From the IMG/VR virus record IMGVR_UViG_3300014204_000120, positions 32,001 to 96,000 of that record: 64,000 nt of DNA; one strand, 5' to 3'. Positions 7,194-13,493 of the stretch are shown piece by piece (within the stretch, counting starts at the first letter, position 1; every line of letters begins with the position of its first letter). Below the pieces are notes generated by a model. That model was not told the DNA's origin and did no database searches. It worked only from the letters and a program-made list of their open reading frames with translations. The DNA comes from a virus (Duplodnaviria > Caudoviricetes). The position numbers were made by a program, and so were the translations under genes.

Positions 7194-7294
7194 TATAAAT
7201 AATGGTAGAAAGTTGGGACAGCCACAAATGGTTTTCTAACCCCAATTTAGAATTACCTTCTTTCTACTATTAAAAAACCTTATTGGGAGGTTTT
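7194..7294 (+). promoter_or_regulatory. Late promoter plus structured 5' UTR with RBS-sequestering hairpin
   Basis: TATAAATA at 7194; 7201-7212 pairs with 7260-7271; AAAACCT (7274-7280) pairs with AGGTTTT (7288-7294), covering GGAGG. Confidence 0.6.
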
Positions 7295-8432
7295 GATGTG
7301 TAAAAAATTAACTAAAGAAGAATTTATTGAACGATCAAAAAAAATTCACGGTAATAAATACGATTATAGTTTAGTAGATTATATTAATAATAATACTAAA
7401 GTTAAAATTATTTGTTTAAAATGTAATAAAATATTTGAACAAACACCAAATAATCATTTAAATGGTAAGGGTTGTAAAAAATGTAGAAAAACTAAGCACA
7501 AAATGTCAACAATTGAATTTATTGCAAGAGTAAAAGAGATTTGGGGTGATGTTTATGATTATAATTTGGTAGAATATAATAATTTAAACGATAATATTAA
7601 AATTATATGTAAGATTCATGGAGTGTTTAAACAAAAACCTAAAGATCATCTTAGAGGTTGCGGTTGTAGACAATGTGGTATAGATAAAACTAGAAAATTA
7701 AAAATAATGTCATGGGATGATGTTTTAACAAAGTTTAAAAAAATTTATGGTAATGAATATGATTATAGTGAATCTGTGTATCTTTCAATGAATTATCCGA
7801 TTGCTATAATTTGTAAAAATCATGGAATTTTTTATATGTTGCCTAAATATCATTTACATAATGGTGGATGTCCAAAATGCTCAAGACAAAAAATGATAAT
7901 TACAAAAACCAAAAAAATAGAAAATGTTTTATTAGATTTTCGAAATGTTCATGGTGATAATTATGATTATAGTCAGGTTGAATATATTAATAGTAGAACT
8001 AAAATTAAAATTATATGTAAAAAACACGGGATATTTGAACAAACACCAAACAATCATTTAAGAGGTGAATGTTGTCCTAAATGTAAAATATCATTAGGAG
8101 AAAATAAAATATTAATTTGGTTAAATAAAAATAAAATAAAATTTGAACAGCAGAAAGAATTTGATGGTTGTCAATGTAAATTTAATTTAAAATTTGATTT
8201 TTATTTATCAGATTATAATATCTGTATTGAATATGATGGAGGATTACATTTTAAACCTGTTGAATATTTTGGTGGTGAAGAAGCACACGAAAAAACTAAA
8301 ATGAGAGATCAAATAAAAAATGATTATTGTAAAAATAATAATATTAAACTATTTAGGATACCATATTGGAAATTTAATGATATAAATTATATTTTAAAGA
8401 ATATAATAGAAGAAGCAAAAAACTTTTTTTGA
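7293..8432 (+). CDS. Free-standing homing endonuclease-like protein (tandem Zn-binding repeats plus PD-(D/E)XK/Vsr-like nuclease); likely start 7296
   Basis: Four repeats of HG.xYDYS.V.Y...IIC..HG.F.Q.P..HL.G.GC..C; C-terminal FDFYL...IEYDGGLHF...KLFRIPY. Confidence 0.8.
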   Translation: MMCKKLTKEEFIERSKKIHGNKYDYSLVDYINNNTKVKIICLKCNKIFEQTPNNHLNGKGCKKCRKTKHKMSTIEFIARVKEIWGDVYDYNLVEYNNLNDNIKIICKIHGVFKQKPKDHLRGCGCRQCGIDKTRKLKIMSWDDVLTKFKKIYGNEYDYSESVYLSMNYPIAIICKNHGIFYMLPKYHLHNGGCPKCSRQKMIITKTKKIENVLLDFRNVHGDNYDYSQVEYINSRTKIKIICKKHGIFEQTPNNHLRGECCPKCKISLGENKILIWLNKNKIKFEQQKEFDGCQCKFNLKFDFYLSDYNICIEYDGGLHFKPVEYFGGEEAHEKTKMRDQIKNDYCKNNNIKLFRIPYWKFNDINYILKNIIEEAKNFF

Positions 8433-8945
8433 TTATCTAGTCAGAACTATTTTATGATTATGTGTGATATTTTTGATAGCTCTACCACGTAAATCAAATG
8501 TATAACTAGTATTACTGAAACGGTTTATACGAACATTTTTATGTGATGGGATTATTGAACTAGACTGAAGACCTGAAAATTTTTCCCAGTTATCAAAATT
8601 TTCTGGTAGACTATCGACAATTTCAAGTAAAAAATTAGTTATAATATATCCATCTTTGTTAATCCAGATTTGACTGCTGGTGAAGTCAATAGCAAATGCA
8701 TTACACCAAAGACTATTAGTCAATGTCTGACCACTAATTATAGTTGCATCATTATTTTTAATTAGTGGTTTACTGTGGGGATAGTATTCATACCGGCAAG
8801 GATTTGGGAACGGGCAGACCTGAACTGAGTCATGCCAGTTTACATAACCGAGTTGTTTATCGCCAAAATTCATACACCAAGTCGTATCAGCTGCGAAACT
8901 GATACCAATGAACAGAAGCACGGTTGATACAATTTTCTTGAACAT
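8433..8945 (-). CDS. Secreted protein with signal peptide
   Basis: MFKKIVSTVLLFIGISFA-A signal peptide; RBS GAAAGGA; own consensus promoter; basic C-terminus YTFDLRGR. Confidence 0.7.
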   Translation of the reverse strand: MFKKIVSTVLLFIGISFAADTTWCMNFGDKQLGYVNWHDSVQVCPFPNPCRYEYYPHSKPLIKNNDATIISGQTLTNSLWCNAFAIDFTSSQIWINKDGYIITNFLLEIVDSLPENFDNWEKFSGLQSSSIIPSHKNVRINRFSNTSYTFDLRGRAIKNITHNHKIVLTR

Positions 8946-8986: not shown

Positions 8987-9015
8987 AATATACATCAGTT
9001 CAATGGATTTGTCAA
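8987..9015 (-). promoter_or_regulatory. sigma70-type promoter of the 170-aa gene
   Basis: TTGACA (9015-9010), 17 nt, TATATT (8992-8987). Confidence 0.8.
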
Positions 9016-9041
9016 GGTCAAAAATCAGAAAAAATCAATTG

Positions 9042-9375
9042 CAGTCCGTCCGCGCACGTGTGGAGTTTACCTCAGTTGAATCAAATAAAACTTCAGTCGT
9101 TGCAGTCCGTCCGCGCACGTGTGGAGTTTACTGTTTTATGTCTAGTACCCAAATTGCCAGATACAGTCCGTCCGCGCATGTGTGGAGTTTACGACAATAG
9201 AGCTGATGGTGTGTTGGAAAAAGACAGTCCGTCCGCGCATGTGTGGAGTTTACAAATTAACTTGTCATATTAAAAACAATAAAGGCAGTCCGTCCGCGCA
9301 TGTGTGGAGTTTACCAAAATCATAATAACTATTGAATTGGTCAAACCAGTCCGTCCGCGCATGTGTGGAGTTTAC
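9042..9375. CRISPR. CRISPR array: 6 repeats of 29 nt, 5 spacers of 32 nt
   Basis: CAGTCCGTCCGCGCAYGTGTGGAGTTTAC starts at 9042, 9103, 9164, 9225, 9286, 9347 (period 61); all spacers unique. Confidence 0.97.
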
Positions 9376-9603
9376 ACCAACCAGTTGTGGCGGAGTTTTA
9401 AAAATTCCACTATGTGTTGTATTTAAAGATATTTAAATAAAACGGTGCGGGTTAGTGAGTGGTATAATTAACCAATCAAATTAAGATTTGGTGAAGCTAA
9501 AATTATCCCTCACCTTTTGGCTAAGGACCTTAGCCAAGGCAATTAAATTAATAATTACCTATTCAAATATTTTATTAAAATGTCAAAGAACAATATATCA
9601 TCT
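9376..9603 (-). ncRNA. Putative tracrRNA/omega-like scaffold RNA and array leader
   Basis: No ORF; own promoter; perfect inverted repeat 9517-9537, hairpin 9471-9492, GTGAG/CTCAC long-range pairing, repeat-related segment 9382-9410. Confidence 0.6.
9581..9592 (-). promoter_or_regulatory. boxA-like antitermination element
   Basis: TGTTCTTTGACA, 10/12 identical to E. coli rrn boxA TGCTCTTTAACA, just after the predicted start site. Confidence 0.5.
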
Positions 9604-9609
9604 ATTAAT

Positions 9610-9638
9610 AATATAACATCTTCTTTTTTATAAATCAA
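9610..9638 (-). promoter_or_regulatory. sigma70-type promoter for the scaffold RNA/array
   Basis: TTGATT (9638-9633), 17 nt, TATATT (9615-9610) with extended -10 TG; overlaps the nuclease stop codon. Confidence 0.7.
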
Positions 9639-10917
9639 TGTTTGTTGAATTTGCAATATTAATAGCAGCATTTAAATCAGCGTTAATTTCATTGTTACAG
9701 TGTTTACATATAAACTTATCTTGAGAAAGACGATTATCTTTATCCACATATCCGCATTTAGAGCATGTTTGACTGGTATAAGCCGCTTTGATTGTAACAA
9801 CTTTTACGCCTTCTTTTTCAGCTTTATAAGTTATCATGCTTTGTAGTTGATAATATGGCCAGTGCATGAGAAGCATTGGTTTATTTTTAGAGATACCTGA
9901 TAGATTTTCAATTTTAATAATACCAGCATTGTTTTTGATTGCATAATTAATGATTTGTTTGCTAATGAAGTGATTATAACTGGTATGGAAATTAGATATA
10001 TTATTTCTTAGTCTATTTAGATTTTTCAGTTTCTTTTTTCTACCATGCCCTCCGCCAGCTCTGGCTATGCTTTTTTGTAATGATTTTCTGCGGTTATATA
10101 ATTGTATAGATGTTTTAATGTAATCTTCTTTGTTTCCAATAAAAATAGGATTTTCAGAGTTTTGTAAAGCACAAACGGCAGGATTAACCATACCTAAATC
10201 TACACCAACAACAATGTTTGAATCTAAATTATGTTCTTTAATTTTTTCAGATATAACTAGATTAAAAAATAAATCATTGTCTTTGAGTTGAATAGTAGAT
10301 GCACATGTTTTAATTTGAGAAATGTCATTAATATTTTCGTTTTCAATAATTTTATCAACAGTGTGTTTAATATTGGCAGGATCTTTACCAAATAATATAC
10401 CAAATTTTATAATTTCACCTTTTTTTATGTGCCAATTAAAATAATACTTATCATTTGTTTTTTCTAATTTAATAGATATTTGCGTTACTGGTAATGGCAT
10501 ATTTGCTTTAAATGAAGTTATTGATTTTTTTCCAATTTTAATTTCTCTAAAGTCACTTTTATATTTTTTATATACTGATGTTTTTAGTGTATTGGTTATA
10601 CTGGGTGGTAAATTAGGATACTTAGCTTTGACGTCGTGTTCGAATTGGGCTTCATCTTTAATACCAAAATGTTCAAAGAATTTTTCGCGTATTTTATTAA
10701 CTTCGTCTTTATCTTTTATATCAACATCATGTCGTGCTAATAATCGCTCCATCCATTGTTCATTAAATATAATTCCACCAATTATATAATTAGCAGCTCT
10801 AAACGAGTCATTAAATAATTGATATAATCGTTTCCATTGGGCATCCTTTTCCTCTTTAGAATCAGTTGCAACAAACAGTTTTAGTTTTAATACTCTGGTA
10901 TGCATTCCTTCAGTCAT
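9628..10917 (-). CDS. cas12f: Cas12f/TnpB-family RNA-guided nuclease (C2c10/AsCas12f1-like), about 429 aa, catalytic residues intact
   Basis: RuvC-I VGVDLG, RuvC-II IKIENL, Zn finger CSKC...CKHC, RuvC-III NADLNAA, and the GGHGRKKK motif as in AsCas12f1. ATG at 10917 follows RBS GAAAGGA (track start 10932). Adjacent to the array. Confidence 0.85.
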   Translation of the reverse strand: MTEGMHTRVLKLKLFVATDSKEEKDAQWKRLYQLFNDSFRAANYIIGGIIFNEQWMERLLARHDVDIKDKDEVNKIREKFFEHFGIKDEAQFEHDVKAKYPNLPPSITNTLKTSVYKKYKSDFREIKIGKKSITSFKANMPLPVTQISIKLEKTNDKYYFNWHIKKGEIIKFGILFGKDPANIKHTVDKIIENENINDISQIKTCASTIQLKDNDLFFNLVISEKIKEHNLDSNIVVGVDLGMVNPAVCALQNSENPIFIGNKEDYIKTSIQLYNRRKSLQKSIARAGGGHGRKKKLKNLNRLRNNISNFHTSYNHFISKQIINYAIKNNAGIIKIENLSGISKNKPMLLMHWPYYQLQSMITYKAEKEGVKVVTIKAAYTSQTCSKCGYVDKDNRLSQDKFICKHCNNEINADLNAAINIANSTNIDL

Positions 10918-10946
10918 AATATATCCTTTCAATAAATGTTAATATT

Positions 10947-10965
10947 AATATAACATTTTCTTTTT
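10947..10965 (-). promoter_or_regulatory. Extended -10 promoter of the nuclease gene
   Basis: AAAAGAAAATGTTATATT, same motif as at 9610, 30100 and 37960. Confidence 0.55.
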
Positions 10966-11083
10966 AAGAAGTTGTTTAATATTTCAAAAATATAAATACT
11001 TAGTGAGTTTATTCAAAGATATTTTAAATAATTCTTAGTTTAAGACTTTATAGAATATAATCATATCACATTGTTAAATCCGT

Positions 11084-11091
11084 TATAAATA
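11084..11091 (+). promoter_or_regulatory. T4-type late promoter (second copy at 10991)
   Basis: Exact TATAAATA 27 nt before the ATG, with RBS AGGAG. Confidence 0.75.
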
Positions 11092-11117
11092 CGTATATAG
11101 TTGTATAGGAGAAGTAA

Positions 11118-13493
11118 ATGTCAAAGTATTATGTAAAAATTAGTAATGCGTATGTATCAACAGGATTAGGAAGCACGTTTTCCCCGTTTACGTTTACACA
11201 GTTTGTAGACAGGTTATCATCAACTACGGTTTCTGATGAGTATTATGTTTCTGGAACGAGGATAATCAACACAGATTTATTAATGACAATTAGTGGTGCT
11301 ACATGTGTAATCAGTGCTTGGGGAGAGGATCCATATTACATTGTAGGTAATAGTGCTGATATATATTTTGCTATTGGGTCAAACAGTTTAAACATATATG
11401 ATATGATATTGGGATGCACATTATCAACAACGACTGAAGTTTTATTTGATTCGACTGAGGATGAAGCTAGGTCACAGAATTTAGTTATAGATAATTGTTA
11501 TATAAATTTAACTACGTATAATATTGGTTTTGAGGATTTTAATAGTGTAATAGTACGGAATTCTAATTTAGTTGCAGATAAAATAATAGGTCAGAACATA
11601 GTTAGTATGTCGTTTGTTAATGATATATTTGATGTTAGTGATATAGATTGTACAGAAGATAATGATGTTGATGTATTCACTTTGGATAATTGTGCGTTTA
11701 CAAGTGCTACGGCTGGATTTACAACGGATGATACAGATTGGACTAATGTACAGGAATTATGGGCAAGACCAGATGATATATTTAATGCAAGTGTTTCAGC
11801 AATTTCAGCTGATAGTTTTCATTATTTAAGTGCTGATTTTGGAACAATTACAATAAGTGGAGATACTGATTATACAAACACATGGTATAATGGAAGACGA
11901 GATGGTATAGGAAGTTTATATTTTCCAGCATTAAGTGGTGTAAGTGTTTCAGCATCGTTAGTATCAGCTGCACCAAATACAACCATTAGTTTTGTTTTGA
12001 GTGGTAATAATCCTTTTACAGTTTTTAGTGCAACGAGTGCTACATATTATTTTGATGATGAAAATACGTCCGCGGTAAATACAAATAGTACATTAGCGCA
12101 TATATATTCGGCTACAGATTATTATAATACTAGTGCTGTTATGATTTCTAAAAATAGTTGGTATACAGTTACAACACCAGTCCAAGTTATATTAGTAGGA
12201 GCATTTACAGTTATAATAAAGGTATATGATGCTTTTGGAAATGATAAGACTGGTGGAGTATTAAGACCTTTATCATATGTATCAGTTTCAGCAAGTGCTA
12301 ATGGATATGATGGTATAGATAGTTATGTATGGGATTTTGGAGATGCTACTGGTAGTGTTCCAGTTTCAGGTATAACTAATCCTGATAATACATATTATAT
12401 TGGATTAGGAATGAAGACTATATCTTTAACTGCTCATGCTGTAGAAGAAACATTCTCTGCAACAGCAAATACAACATTAGGAATATCAGCTTTAACAAGT
12501 GCTTATTATGTTAATATAACTTCAGCTTATGATGCTAATACTGGTAATATAGGAACATTAGCTGATCCATATAATTGGGATGAATTTAAAACTAGAGTTG
12601 AATCGTTTGTAAGTGCAGATTATAGTGATACATATTATTTAAGTGGAAGTAGAAAATTAACACAACCTACAACAGGTCAAAATGTATTAGCTATAAATTC
12701 GTTGAAAAATTTAACTATTGACTGTTGGGAGAATTCAGCAACGCATGGAGCTCCTTGGTTGCTTGAAATAGAAGACTGGACAACGACAAATGCTAATTCG
12801 ATATTATCGGCAGTCGGAACAACATTAAAGAATGGTATAATTTATAATAAGAGATATATTTCTCCTGGTTATGGTGGAACATTAAAGATAACTAATGTAT
12901 ATGATATGTTTATAGTTTATCAAGGTACATATGCTGGAATAGAAATAGACCCTTGGAACTTTGTATTATATTGTGGTGGTACATGTGGTGTAGTAATGCC
13001 AAGTGCGGATTCAAATATTATAGGAAGTACTTTATATTTAAGTGGAAATGGATTTACTGATAATTTTGTTGTAGGAGATTATTCAGAAATATATTTACCA
13101 GCGACTCAACAAACAGGATATAATTTAGATTTAATAGATTCTGTTTTTGTTAATTTAGATTTAGAAGATTCTAATTATTTCAGTGCTGCTGATGTATATA
13201 TTAGAAATAGTACTTTTAATAGAGCTTCTAGTGCTATTGAAGCAGATTTTGATATATCAGCTAATGATGATAGTCAGTTTGGTTGGTCTCCACCCGTTAG
13301 TTATCCGTTTACACCAAGTCATAGGTTATATGATAAAAATATAGAGTATGTGATATTAAAGAAGGGAGACTTAGTACCGTTTAGTGATATTGATATGCCG
13401 CCTAATCCGGGCTATGGAGCTTCGGCATATTCTGAATATGATACTGGCTTGTGGGGTTATGCTAGAAATCAATATAATACAAGTGCGAGTTAA
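11118..13493 (+). CDS. Virion (baseplate/fibre-associated) protein with beta-helix-like modules and PKD domains
   Basis: Acidic, S/T-rich; SYVWDFGD PKD motif; two YYV...G.GT..DP(F/Y) modules; late promoter. Confidence 0.65.
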   Translation: MSKYYVKISNAYVSTGLGSTFSPFTFTQFVDRLSSTTVSDEYYVSGTRIINTDLLMTISGATCVISAWGEDPYYIVGNSADIYFAIGSNSLNIYDMILGCTLSTTTEVLFDSTEDEARSQNLVIDNCYINLTTYNIGFEDFNSVIVRNSNLVADKIIGQNIVSMSFVNDIFDVSDIDCTEDNDVDVFTLDNCAFTSATAGFTTDDTDWTNVQELWARPDDIFNASVSAISADSFHYLSADFGTITISGDTDYTNTWYNGRRDGIGSLYFPALSGVSVSASLVSAAPNTTISFVLSGNNPFTVFSATSATYYFDDENTSAVNTNSTLAHIYSATDYYNTSAVMISKNSWYTVTTPVQVILVGAFTVIIKVYDAFGNDKTGGVLRPLSYVSVSASANGYDGIDSYVWDFGDATGSVPVSGITNPDNTYYIGLGMKTISLTAHAVEETFSATANTTLGISALTSAYYVNITSAYDANTGNIGTLADPYNWDEFKTRVESFVSADYSDTYYLSGSRKLTQPTTGQNVLAINSLKNLTIDCWENSATHGAPWLLEIEDWTTTNANSILSAVGTTLKNGIIYNKRYISPGYGGTLKITNVYDMFIVYQGTYAGIEIDPWNFVLYCGGTCGVVMPSADSNIIGSTLYLSGNGFTDNFVVGDYSEIYLPATQQTGYNLDLIDSVFVNLDLEDSNYFSAADVYIRNSTFNRASSAIEADFDISANDDSQFGWSPPVSYPFTPSHRLYDKNIEYVILKKGDLVPFSDIDMPPNPGYGASAYSEYDTGLWGYARNQYNTSAS
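11428..11459 (+). other. Protospacer matching array spacer 9071-9102 (31/32)
   Basis: CAACGACTGAAGTTTTATTTGATTCGACTGAG vs reverse complement of the spacer CAACGACTGAAGTTTTATTTGATTCAACTGAG. Confidence 0.95.

Follow-up and report, generated by a model that had tools for sequence, protein, structure and literature searches.

A phage-borne Cas12f cassette with CRISPR spacers against the gene beside its own insertion slot: a candidate reprogrammable homing nuclease

Introduction

Type V-F Cas12f nucleases, among them CnCas12f (PDB 8HR5), AsCas12f, OsCas12f and RhCas12f, are compact RuvC effectors derived from TnpB, with a zinc-ribbon TNB domain, an adjacent CRISPR array and a structured helper RNA encoded between gene and array. 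The cassette described here has the same parts, and by analogy a 5′ PAM and cutting of double-stranded DNA would be expected of it. Unlike the type V-F systems, it is carried by a phage and no cas1 accompanies it in the record (~53% of the genome), its repeats and 61-nt period are type I-E-like, its guides target the carrier's own flanking gene and its PAM appears to be neither T-rich nor C-rich.

The locus also resembles the free-standing homing endonucleases of T4-type phages (Seg and Mob; PMC10448857). In both, the nuclease sits between conserved genes and relatives exist without it. In the allele that lacks the nuclease, the recognition site, a predicted one for the cassette, is tens to hundreds of nucleotides away from the insertion point; carriers have a different sequence at that site, and a flanking block is inherited along with the gene, or for the cassette appears to be. 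Phage nucleases have been placed at boundaries of genetic exchange (PMC10448857). The difference lies in recognition, which in the cassette is predicted to depend on exchangeable RNA guides rather than on protein, two variants having two sites.

The omega-RNA-guided homing of TnpB and IscB transposons (PMC13565253; for a plasmid IS drive, preprint PMC11870625) involves the same protein superfamily and, by analogy, would share with the cassette an RNA-guided break at the element-free allele and restoration of the copy by recombination. Unlike these elements, the cassette has no transposase or transposon ends, takes its guides from array spacers instead of a fixed element flank, and would need phage recombination in a fixed genomic slot to spread. 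Virus-borne mini-CRISPR arrays (Medvedeva et al. 2019, PMC6858448; landfill survey, PMC10076291) likewise hold spacers against the carrier's close relatives and share its landfill and groundwater habitat; these arrays borrow a host effector, whereas this phage has its own intact cas12f and its targets cluster beside the cassette. Fta dCas12f, which works with sigma-E (PDB 9N9C; PMC13472631), belongs to a related Cas12f lineage but is a dead nuclease that activates transcription with a single chimeric guide, in contrast to a cassette with an intact active site and an array.

Results

The window, a 64,000-nt stretch of an IMG/VR record of 137,849 bp (~53% of the genome), comes from a T4-like jumbo phage. 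Its cassette and the gene to the right are laid out as follows.

9018..11082, 2.07 kb: inserted cassette (array, scaffold, cas12f and the region upstream of cas12f) in a variable slot
9042..9375, minus strand: CRISPR array, six 29-nt repeats (starting at 9042, 9103, 9164, 9225, 9286 and 9347) and five 32-nt spacers, period 61
9071..9102, minus strand: spacer 1, leader-distal, with the guide sense of 11428-11459
9376..9603, minus strand: tracrRNA- or omega-RNA-like scaffold, with a conserved hairpin (9519-9535) and a long-range stem (9507-9514 with 9451-9462)
9376-9403: hairpin partner, resembling a degenerate repeat
~9399-9416: candidate anti-repeat, complementary to the 5′ part of the minus-sense repeat
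9638 to 9610, minus strand: promoter-like site
9628..10917, minus strand: cas12f (P0001, 429 aa), RuvC D-E-D and zinc-ribbon TNB domain present
10989..11016, minus strand: candidate sigma-70-like cas12f promoter, a consensus match only
11084-11091: T4-type late promoter motif, driving P0002
11118..13493, plus strand: target gene P0002, 791 aa, weak PKD-like Ig signals, baseplate/tail-fibre module

That the cassette is a genuine insertion, as the preliminary description held, is supported by close relatives without it. Homology with the cassette-less contigs L007, L008, L009 and L024 ends at 9017 and restarts at 11083 (L007 and L024) or 11107 (L008 and L009), and one metagenome contig joins 9017 directly to 11115. 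In relatives the same slot holds a methylase and a 420-aa ORF, or a 72-aa ORF; the 420-aa ORF of this rival cassette has no sequence match in Pfam or PDB. The nuclease gene is placed between conserved genes and missing from close relatives, as free-standing phage homing endonucleases are. No cas1, cas2 or cas4 adaptation genes were found among the ORFs of the cassette, and no Cas1-family match in the 138-kb record.

P0001 matches Pfam PF07282 (2.9e-24) and PF01385 (8.1e-09) as well as NCBIfam guided_TnpB (1.1e-54). Cas12f chains in PDB were matched at 1e-41 to 4e-55, including CnCas12f (8hr5, 3.8e-55) and AsCas12f- and OsCas12f-type entries, and in the phmmer alignments the RuvC motifs D, E and D align with those of solved Cas12f nucleases. 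P0001 is apparently an intact, active Cas12f. Fta dCas12f (9N9C) matches with an E value of 3.1e-29 and is the sole solved chain that aligns to the N-terminus; this PAM-reading region gives only a weak match to it (E 0.3).

The scaffold lies between cas12f and the array, which are 250 nt apart. It is conserved, with compensatory changes, in L010, L013, L017, L020 and L023, loci at ~40% protein identity, and its G-U pairs hold on the gene strand only. In five loci, inspection by eye showed a segment that could pair with the 5′ part of the repeat. Against Rfam no family reached the gathering score, the array and scaffold region giving chance-level matches only.

From comparison with the homologous loci, we infer that the guides are read from the minus strand. 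The scaffold, on the gene strand, leads straight into minus-sense repeats in four of these loci (L020/21, L023 and L013 among them), and the degenerate last repeats of L020, L023 and a bacterial array, L035, agree with this reading. In L017 the array is inverted and relocated, and the scaffold still holds a segment complementary to the minus-sense repeat. RNAduplex energies between scaffold and repeat separated neither cognate from non-cognate pairs nor one sense from the other, so the orientation argument rests on locus architecture and not on energies. Read from the minus strand, repeat 6 adjoins the scaffold and spacer 1 is most distal. One base separates repeats 1-2 from repeats 3-6, and all resemble type I-E repeats. 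No host array bearing the phage's own repeat was found in the species genomes searched, and IMG/VR, from which near-identical records may be absent, yielded no relatives by protein patterns or by repeat.

Two protospacers lie in P0002, one for spacer 1 and one for a spacer of the array variant L073. They and their PAM-side flanks are these.

11428..11459, plus strand: protospacer 1, P0002 codons 104-114, mismatch at 11453
11424..11427, plus strand: PAM-side flank of protospacer 1, TCAA in the window and L073, TCAG in L007, L024, L008 and L009
11117..11148, minus strand: protospacer of the L073 spacer, spanning the P0002 start codon
11149..11152, minus strand: PAM-side flank of protospacer 11117-11148, TACG in carriers, TATG in L007/L024, TAAG in L008/9

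The preliminary description had noted that the reverse complement of spacer 1 equals 11428-11459 except at 11453 (31/32), a synonymous difference in the first gene flanking the cassette, and that the other four spacers find no such partner in the window by eye; all of this was borne out. A repeat search returns inverted arms 9070-9102 and 11428-11460 (33 nt, 97% complementary), and a Hamming scan of the 137,849-bp record gives a single match, on the opposite strand at 11428, with one mismatch. Apart from one chance base, the match runs from one spacer boundary to the other and no further. Counting five spacers, two strands and the whole record at its own base composition, the chance expectation of a match of at least 31/32 is 4.8e-10. 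Position 11453 is the wobble base of codon 11451-11453, where the gene has TCG and the spacer TCA; each encodes Ser. From the start of the target it is 345 nt to the cassette's right edge (11083) and 511 nt to the start codon of the nuclease (10917). For spacers 2-5, no match with nine or fewer mismatches exists in the 138-kb record; their 24-nt cores have no exact IMG/VR match, and INPHARED phages gave chance-level matches only.

L073 encodes an identical Cas12f protein and has the same repeat with four different spacers. Its distal visible spacer matches 11117-11148 at 32/32, while its spacers 2-4 have no match in the 138-kb record or in the kin loci. The match at 11117-11148 is 32/32 in the window, L073, L007 and L024 and 28/32 in L008/9; that at protospacer 1 is 31/32 in L007 and L024 and 30/32 in L008/9. 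Both protospacers, 35-65 nt and 345-376 nt from the slot edge, are therefore present in cassette-less genomes. By sequence match, each of the two array variants has at least one guide aimed at P0002, the late tail-type gene next to the slot, within its first 350 nt. Of the nine known spacers, two have their match no more than 400 nt from the slot; the chance of this is ~1e-5 if the two are independent draws. The other seven have no identified target, so the module's main role may lie elsewhere. Spacers of L017, L020/21 and L023 have no match in their own short contigs and only chance-level matches in phages, and the homologous arrays yield no independent PAM.

With minus-strand guides, the mismatch at 11453 is at guide position 26. 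It had been suggested that this mismatch, or else the flank, spares the carrier, and that a relative would hold the perfect-match allele. Position 11453 is G in all six allele sequences examined, and a JGI metagenome scan with N at 11453 returned two cassette-less contigs, both G, and no perfect-match allele of protospacer 1. The position-26 mismatch is common to every relative and is therefore not the self-protection. As for protection by hypermodification, no thymidylate-synthase-family (dCMP hydroxymethylase-type) gene was found in the record, about half of the genome.

The proposed comparison of flanks in cassette-less relatives does separate self from kin: carriers have TCAA and TACG where kin have TCAG, TATG and TAAG. 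The bases that set carriers apart from every cassette-less relative here are at position -1 of protospacer 1 and position -2 of the other. Between the two suggested means of self-protection, the flank read with a minus-strand crRNA fits these carrier-specific bases, and the seed mismatch does not, the homologous loci opposing the plus strand it would need. Across 406 columns, only 11150, 11384, 11427 and one 27-nt patch are carrier-specific. Two of the three isolated substitutions fall in PAM-side flanks, and the probability of hitting both 3-nt windows by chance is ~6e-4. The substitution at 11427 replaces Ala by Thr; 11150, a third codon position where the change is silent, has three alleles and may simply be hypervariable. 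The carriers comprise a single clone, with L003-L006 and L074 identical to the window at 100%, and one recombinant variant, set against four cassette-less contigs of two or three lineages; as the carriers are nearly one clone, the association between carriers and flanks rests on related genomes.

It is plausible that rivals keep a cutting signal at the target that carriers have lost. The permissive flank is tentatively W-G at -2 and -1, a motif read post hoc from five flanks. Type I-E systems choose AAG/ATG-type motifs on the same side. The flank of the L073 protospacer in L073 itself retains G at -1, and a bare 5′-G motif, as in a published relative, would therefore not protect L073. The PAM of CnCas12f, the closest solved relative, is described as C-rich; such a PAM is absent from all flanks compared.

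The window diverges from L007 by 6.5% from 11083 to 12882 and by ~0-1% beyond, and on the left side L024 keeps 99.6% identity as far as the slot edge. The cassette and ~1.8 kb of flank behave as a single exchanged block, which is compatible with co-conversion, although any modular exchange would look alike. Carriers come from landfill and groundwater. One landfill run contains the cassette-less form (joint 9017 to 11115, depth 36) alongside cassette pieces (depth 2-8), and deletion forms without nuclease and array occur among metagenome contigs.

Discussion

Judged from sequence comparison, the cassette is probably a reprogrammable homing nuclease against close kin. In its full form, toward which we lean, the model is that of a self-contained phage CRISPR-Cas12f module that would cut kin beside its slot, leave carriers protected by the PAM and spread by recombinational repair. 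During co-infection, Cas12f would cut the flanking gene of rivals that have no cassette, or a rival cassette, in the slot. These rivals would retain a permissive 5′ flank, and the carrier copy would be spared through flank substitution, with A in place of G at -1 of one protospacer and C in place of T or A at -2 of the other. Recombination with the uncut carrier genome, in a T4-like phage, would then mend the break, excluding the rival allele and copying the cassette along with the protective flank.

We consider it unlikely, but worth weighing, that the matching spacers are harmless relics. Spacers derived from self or kin would then persist only where the resident target lacks a PAM, and the real targets would be unrelated competitors or host elements. 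This would agree with the seven of nine spacers that have no known target, and with a spacer 1 that looks old and drifting, having its position-26 mismatch in all sampled alleles and the leader-distal, oldest place under the minus-strand reading. The deletion forms that have lost nuclease and array suggest weak selection in some lineages. Relics leave unexplained, however, why two arrays should each have a spacer that matches the slot-bordering gene within its first 350 nt (~1e-5 for random spacers) and why carrier-specific substitutions should lie on the PAM side of exactly these protospacers. Moreover, a relic state in which kin are permissive and self is not would still cut kin if the nuclease is active.

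That the crRNAs come from the plus strand seems improbable. Spacer 1 would then have a seed mismatch at position 7 of its self target, flanked by CTTCATC, and this mismatch would protect the carrier. The repeat does form a better hairpin on that strand, G-U pairs becoming A-C on the minus strand, with one compensatory pair in the hairpin relative to L017, and the L017 array is inverted relative to its gene. Yet the same A-C 'defect' is seen in a 20-repeat bacterial array of a Cse1-carrying genome, the promoter scan found no plus-strand promoter-like site upstream of the array, and in four loci the scaffold on the gene strand is directly followed by minus-sense repeats, the degenerate terminal ones lying farthest from it. 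A mismatch common to all cassette-less kin cannot discriminate between alleles, and the L073 spacer matches its own genome at 32/32, with zero mismatches. Under plus-strand crRNAs, the same flanks show no consistent difference between self and kin.

We give hardly any weight to regulation, in which the guides would hold Cas12f at the 5′ end of the adjacent late gene without cutting, for repression or timing, in the manner of nuclease-dead Cas12f or TldR-type regulators: both targets are at the extreme 5′ end of one gene, one over the start codon, and nuclease-dead Cas12f relatives have been published as RNA-guided transcription regulators, but the RuvC D-E-D residues and zinc ribbon are intact, the matches are full-length (25 contiguous plus 6; 32/32) where binding-only guides typically have short seeds, the two guides sit on opposite strands, the derived flank changes in carriers are the opposite of the conservation expected of a self-regulatory site, and the array has turned over completely between variants encoding the same protein.

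Returning to homing, a more tentative extension, which we entertain without favoring, is that the cassette acts as a natural CRISPR-guided gene drive. A Cas12f cassette in a fixed slot would be re-aimed by spacers gained from the flanking gene of rivals, and carriers would fix PAM-side escape substitutions that travel with it. Spacers might be gained through a host type I-E adaptation complex using the I-E-like repeats.

A homing endonuclease is tied to one protein-recognised site, and it decays after saturation or loss of that site. If the site were instead read from an exchangeable spacer, a homing cassette could escape this cycle. If true, it would be a natural counterpart to engineered CRISPR gene drives, would bring together in a single element the homing of TnpB-guided transposons, CRISPR immunity and phage marker exclusion, and would provide a concrete selective reason for miniature Cas12f modules in phages. 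The 429-aa nuclease possibly has an unusual short purine-containing PAM, and the idea could be put to the test directly in vitro, since nature supplies two guide/target pairs, each with predicted permissive and resistant flanks.

No transposase ORF was found within or beside the cassette; among the homologs, the distant L011 is the only one with an adjoining Y1 transposase. One further element lies at the left end of the slot.

8987..9015, minus strand: strong sigma-70-like promoter (11/12 consensus positions), serving the 170-aa gene at 8433-8945

The -35 region of this promoter is the left slot border, and its motif recurs within the slot filler of L008/9.

Results

The cassette sets a CRISPR array beside a gene of the Cas12f/TnpB family, and one of its spacers matches the gene on its right flank:

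9042-9375: CRISPR array, six 29-nt repeats and five 32-nt spacers
9071-9102: spacer 1, reverse complement of 11428-11459 with one mismatch at 11453
9628-10917 (minus strand): ORF of P0001, Cas12f/TnpB family, 429 aa (Pfam PF07282 and PF01385; NCBIfam guided_TnpB, 1e-54)

That spacer 1 matches the phage's own neighbouring gene, as the preliminary description had it, is borne out: the match ends at the spacer borders, its single mismatch is a synonymous Ser codon change, and the chance expectation for such a match is about 5e-10. Spacers 2-5, unmatched by eye in the window, likewise have no match in the full 137,849-bp record, IMG/VR or INPHARED.

A look-up of every contig encoding exactly P0001 yielded, from another sample, a second carrier (L073, 2.4 kb) with an identical Cas12f protein, the same repeat and scaffold, and four entirely different spacers. 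Its most distal visible spacer equals 11117-11148 at 32/32, at the start of the same flanking gene, and is also 32/32 against its own contig and against the cassette-less kin contigs L007 and L024. Two of the nine known spacers thus match less than 400 nt from the slot (about 1e-5 for two independent random draws). Because spacers turn over completely behind an identical protein, the array is being renewed; the repeat type, and only this, suggests the hypothesis that spacers are gained through a host I-E adaptation complex.

The best solved relative of P0001 is 8hr5, which is CnCas12f (3.8e-55), with AsCas12f/OsCas12f-type chains next, and by sequence alignment the RuvC D-E-D motifs and zinc ribbon of P0001 coincide with their counterparts in active nucleases. 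No Cas1 was found in the viral record, whose 137,849 bp (the window being bases 32001-96000) are judged to cover about 53% of the genome. The window has about 28% G+C, and genes near the cassette include T4-type features, a gp25-like baseplate gene and a RegA-type translational regulator. The runs containing the stretch are landfill and groundwater metagenomes.

Comparison with phage relatives places the insert limits at 9018-11082. Homology to the four cassette-less contigs L007, L024, L008 and L009 stops at 9017 and restarts at 11083 or 11107, and two of them hold other genes there:

L007:3390-5409 and L024:498-2517: methylase and 420-aa ORF, same slot as window 9018-11082

The first is an N6/N4 DNA methylase (PF01555, 1e-40); the 420-aa ORF that follows has no Pfam or PDB sequence match. 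Together they may form a restriction-modification pair, which would make this slot filler a rival nuclease cassette. In L008 and L009 the filler is a 72-aa zinc-ribbon ORF. A strong sigma-70-like promoter borders the slot on the left and a late promoter on the right, where the T4-type motif TATAAATA precedes the gene at 11118.

Two further copies of promoter motifs were observed. A second TATAAATA, at 10991-10998 (plus strand), lies at the right end inside the cassette, faces the flanking gene and overlaps the -10 of a candidate cas12f promoter on the opposite strand. In the filler of the 'empty' slot (L008:3757-4131) the left-border promoter motif recurs ahead of the zinc-ribbon ORF; slot contents may therefore swap by recombination between repeated promoter cassettes, a process described for T4-type hyperplastic regions.

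The guides are very probably transcribed from the minus strand, judging from P0001 homologues of about 40% identity compared together with their DNA. In all of them a conserved hairpin and long-range stem, with compensatory changes, lie on the gene strand. At the homologue loci L020/21, L023 and L013, and in the window, this scaffold leads directly into single-sense repeats (minus in the window), which in L020 and L023 end in a degenerate copy. At locus L017 the array is upstream and inverted; the scaffold segment is still complementary to the 5' part of the same-sense repeat. A promoter scan gave a promoter-like site directed at the scaffold on the minus strand; on the plus strand it reported none directed at the array. 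The repeats and their 61-nt period resemble type I-E arrays: an Anaerolineales genome encoding Cse1 has a 20-repeat array with nearly the L023 repeat and the same polarity of degenerate end repeats, and the E. coli I-E repeat, part of whose string is confirmed in the literature, resembles the phage repeat in a by-eye alignment.

Mini-arrays also stand beside the homologues of about 40% identity; their repeats, of 28-29 nt, are type I-E-like and recur about every 61 nt. Adaptation-less Cas12f with I-E-type arrays seems to form an entire clade:

L017:1-230, L020:2128-2400, L023:414-500, L013:6464-6490: homologue mini-arrays, which relative to the gene are upstream, downstream or inverted

If the guides are minus-strand, spacer 1 would be the oldest and scaffold-distal; its guide would have the sense of 11428-11459, with the mismatch at guide position 26 and the PAM side at 11424-11427. 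The flanks on this side differ between self and kin:

11424-11427 (plus strand): spacer 1 target flank, TCAA in the window and L073; TCAG in L007, L024, L008 and L009
11149-11152 (minus strand): L073 spacer target flank, TACG in the window and L073; TATG in L007/L024; TAAG in L008/L009

We call carrier-specific any base common to both carriers and absent from all four cassette-less contigs. In 406 aligned columns (11118-11543) only 11150, 11384, 11427 and a 27-nt patch at 11188-11214 qualify; among the three isolated sites, 11150 falls at position -2 of the L073 spacer target and 11427 at position -1 of the spacer 1 target. Hitting both 3-nt flank windows has a permutation probability of 6e-4, or a few per thousand allowing for strand and side choice, the carriers compared being few and related. 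The substitution at 11427 is non-synonymous (Ala to Thr). Flanks read for the plus strand have no such self/kin pattern, which independently favours minus-strand guides. W-G at -2 and -1 is a candidate permissive motif that fits the five flanks, framed post hoc. The bare 5'-G motif, the minimal motif of a published relative, would be insufficient to protect L073, because its flank is TACG. That the matches are harmless relics lacking a PAM seems unlikely to us.

Two means of self-protection had been proposed. A flank read with a minus-strand crRNA agrees with these differences (TCAA/TACG versus TCAG/TATG/TAAG), whereas the mismatch at 11453 does not serve: G occupies this position in all six alleles compared (the window with its clonal copies, L073, L007, L024, L008 and L009), and a metagenome scan leaving the position free gave no A allele. 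The mismatch is therefore no self/kin discriminator; drift in the distal portion of an old spacer explains it more simply. Since carriers and cassette-less kin have it in common, it also speaks against plus-strand guides with self protected by a seed mismatch. The main argument for that alternative is the better hairpin of the plus-strand repeat, but the same better hairpin occurs in the bacterial (Anaerolineales) array, and we consider it improbable.

The patch at 11188-11214 comprises 11 substitutions changing eight residues of the flanking protein; the window and L073 have it, no cassette-less relative does, and it looks like a micro-conversion tract. In P0008, a 99% identical protein, the codon at 11427 is the Thr codon of carriers but the patch is that of kin.

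The window differs from L007 by 6.5% between the slot and 12882, and by about 0-1% beyond; L024 shares 99.6% identity with the window as far as the slot's left edge, against 94% to the right of the slot; and within 11250-11420 the L073 sequence is a mosaic, part window-like and part L008-like. Given these divergence steps and the mosaic, the cassette behaves as a single exchangeable unit together with about 1.8 kb of flank, in which both target sites lie; the region is rich in recombination.

One landfill run has both cassette fragments (depth 2-8) and a cassette-less form (joint 9017->11115, depth 36). A nuclease-less, near-identical derivative is found in two runs, X7 and X8 (joint 9589->10946 via 15 other letters). 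In X8 the same contig also lacks the array (joint 9017->9445), and nothing but the conserved scaffold core 9445-9589 and the upstream region 10946-11130 remains. Loss of nuclease and array is, by analogy, the kind of decay known from selfish nuclease genes.

Discussion

On comparative evidence we lean, by a modest measure, towards a reading of these sequences in which guided Cas12f cuts co-infecting kin beside the slot, carriers are protected by their flanks and the cassette spreads by repair. Cas12f would be expressed from an early-type promoter, inferred from the promoter scan, and loaded with minus-strand guides. It would cut the late gene next to the slot in any co-infecting rival whose flank is still permissive, and recombination-dependent repair would copy the cassette and its protective flank into the rival; carriers would be immune through their flank substitutions. 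The best match to both guides is in L007/L024-type genomes (32/32, and 25 contiguous PAM-proximal bases), whose slot is occupied by the rival methylase cassette. That the guides instead regulate the flanking late gene is an idea to which we give little credence.

Phage-borne miniature Cas12 systems, viral arrays aimed at kin and RNA-guided homing of TnpB elements have already been described. Our literature search turned up no account of a slot-resident phage homing cassette that uses a CRISPR array as its recognition module.

Variation was also observed to the left of the slot, where 7293-8432 encodes a 379-aa protein made up of four DUF723-type units in tandem, each about 200 nt long and with a Cys-rich end. 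Its homologue in L008 and L009 is 501 aa long; unit number therefore differs among relatives.
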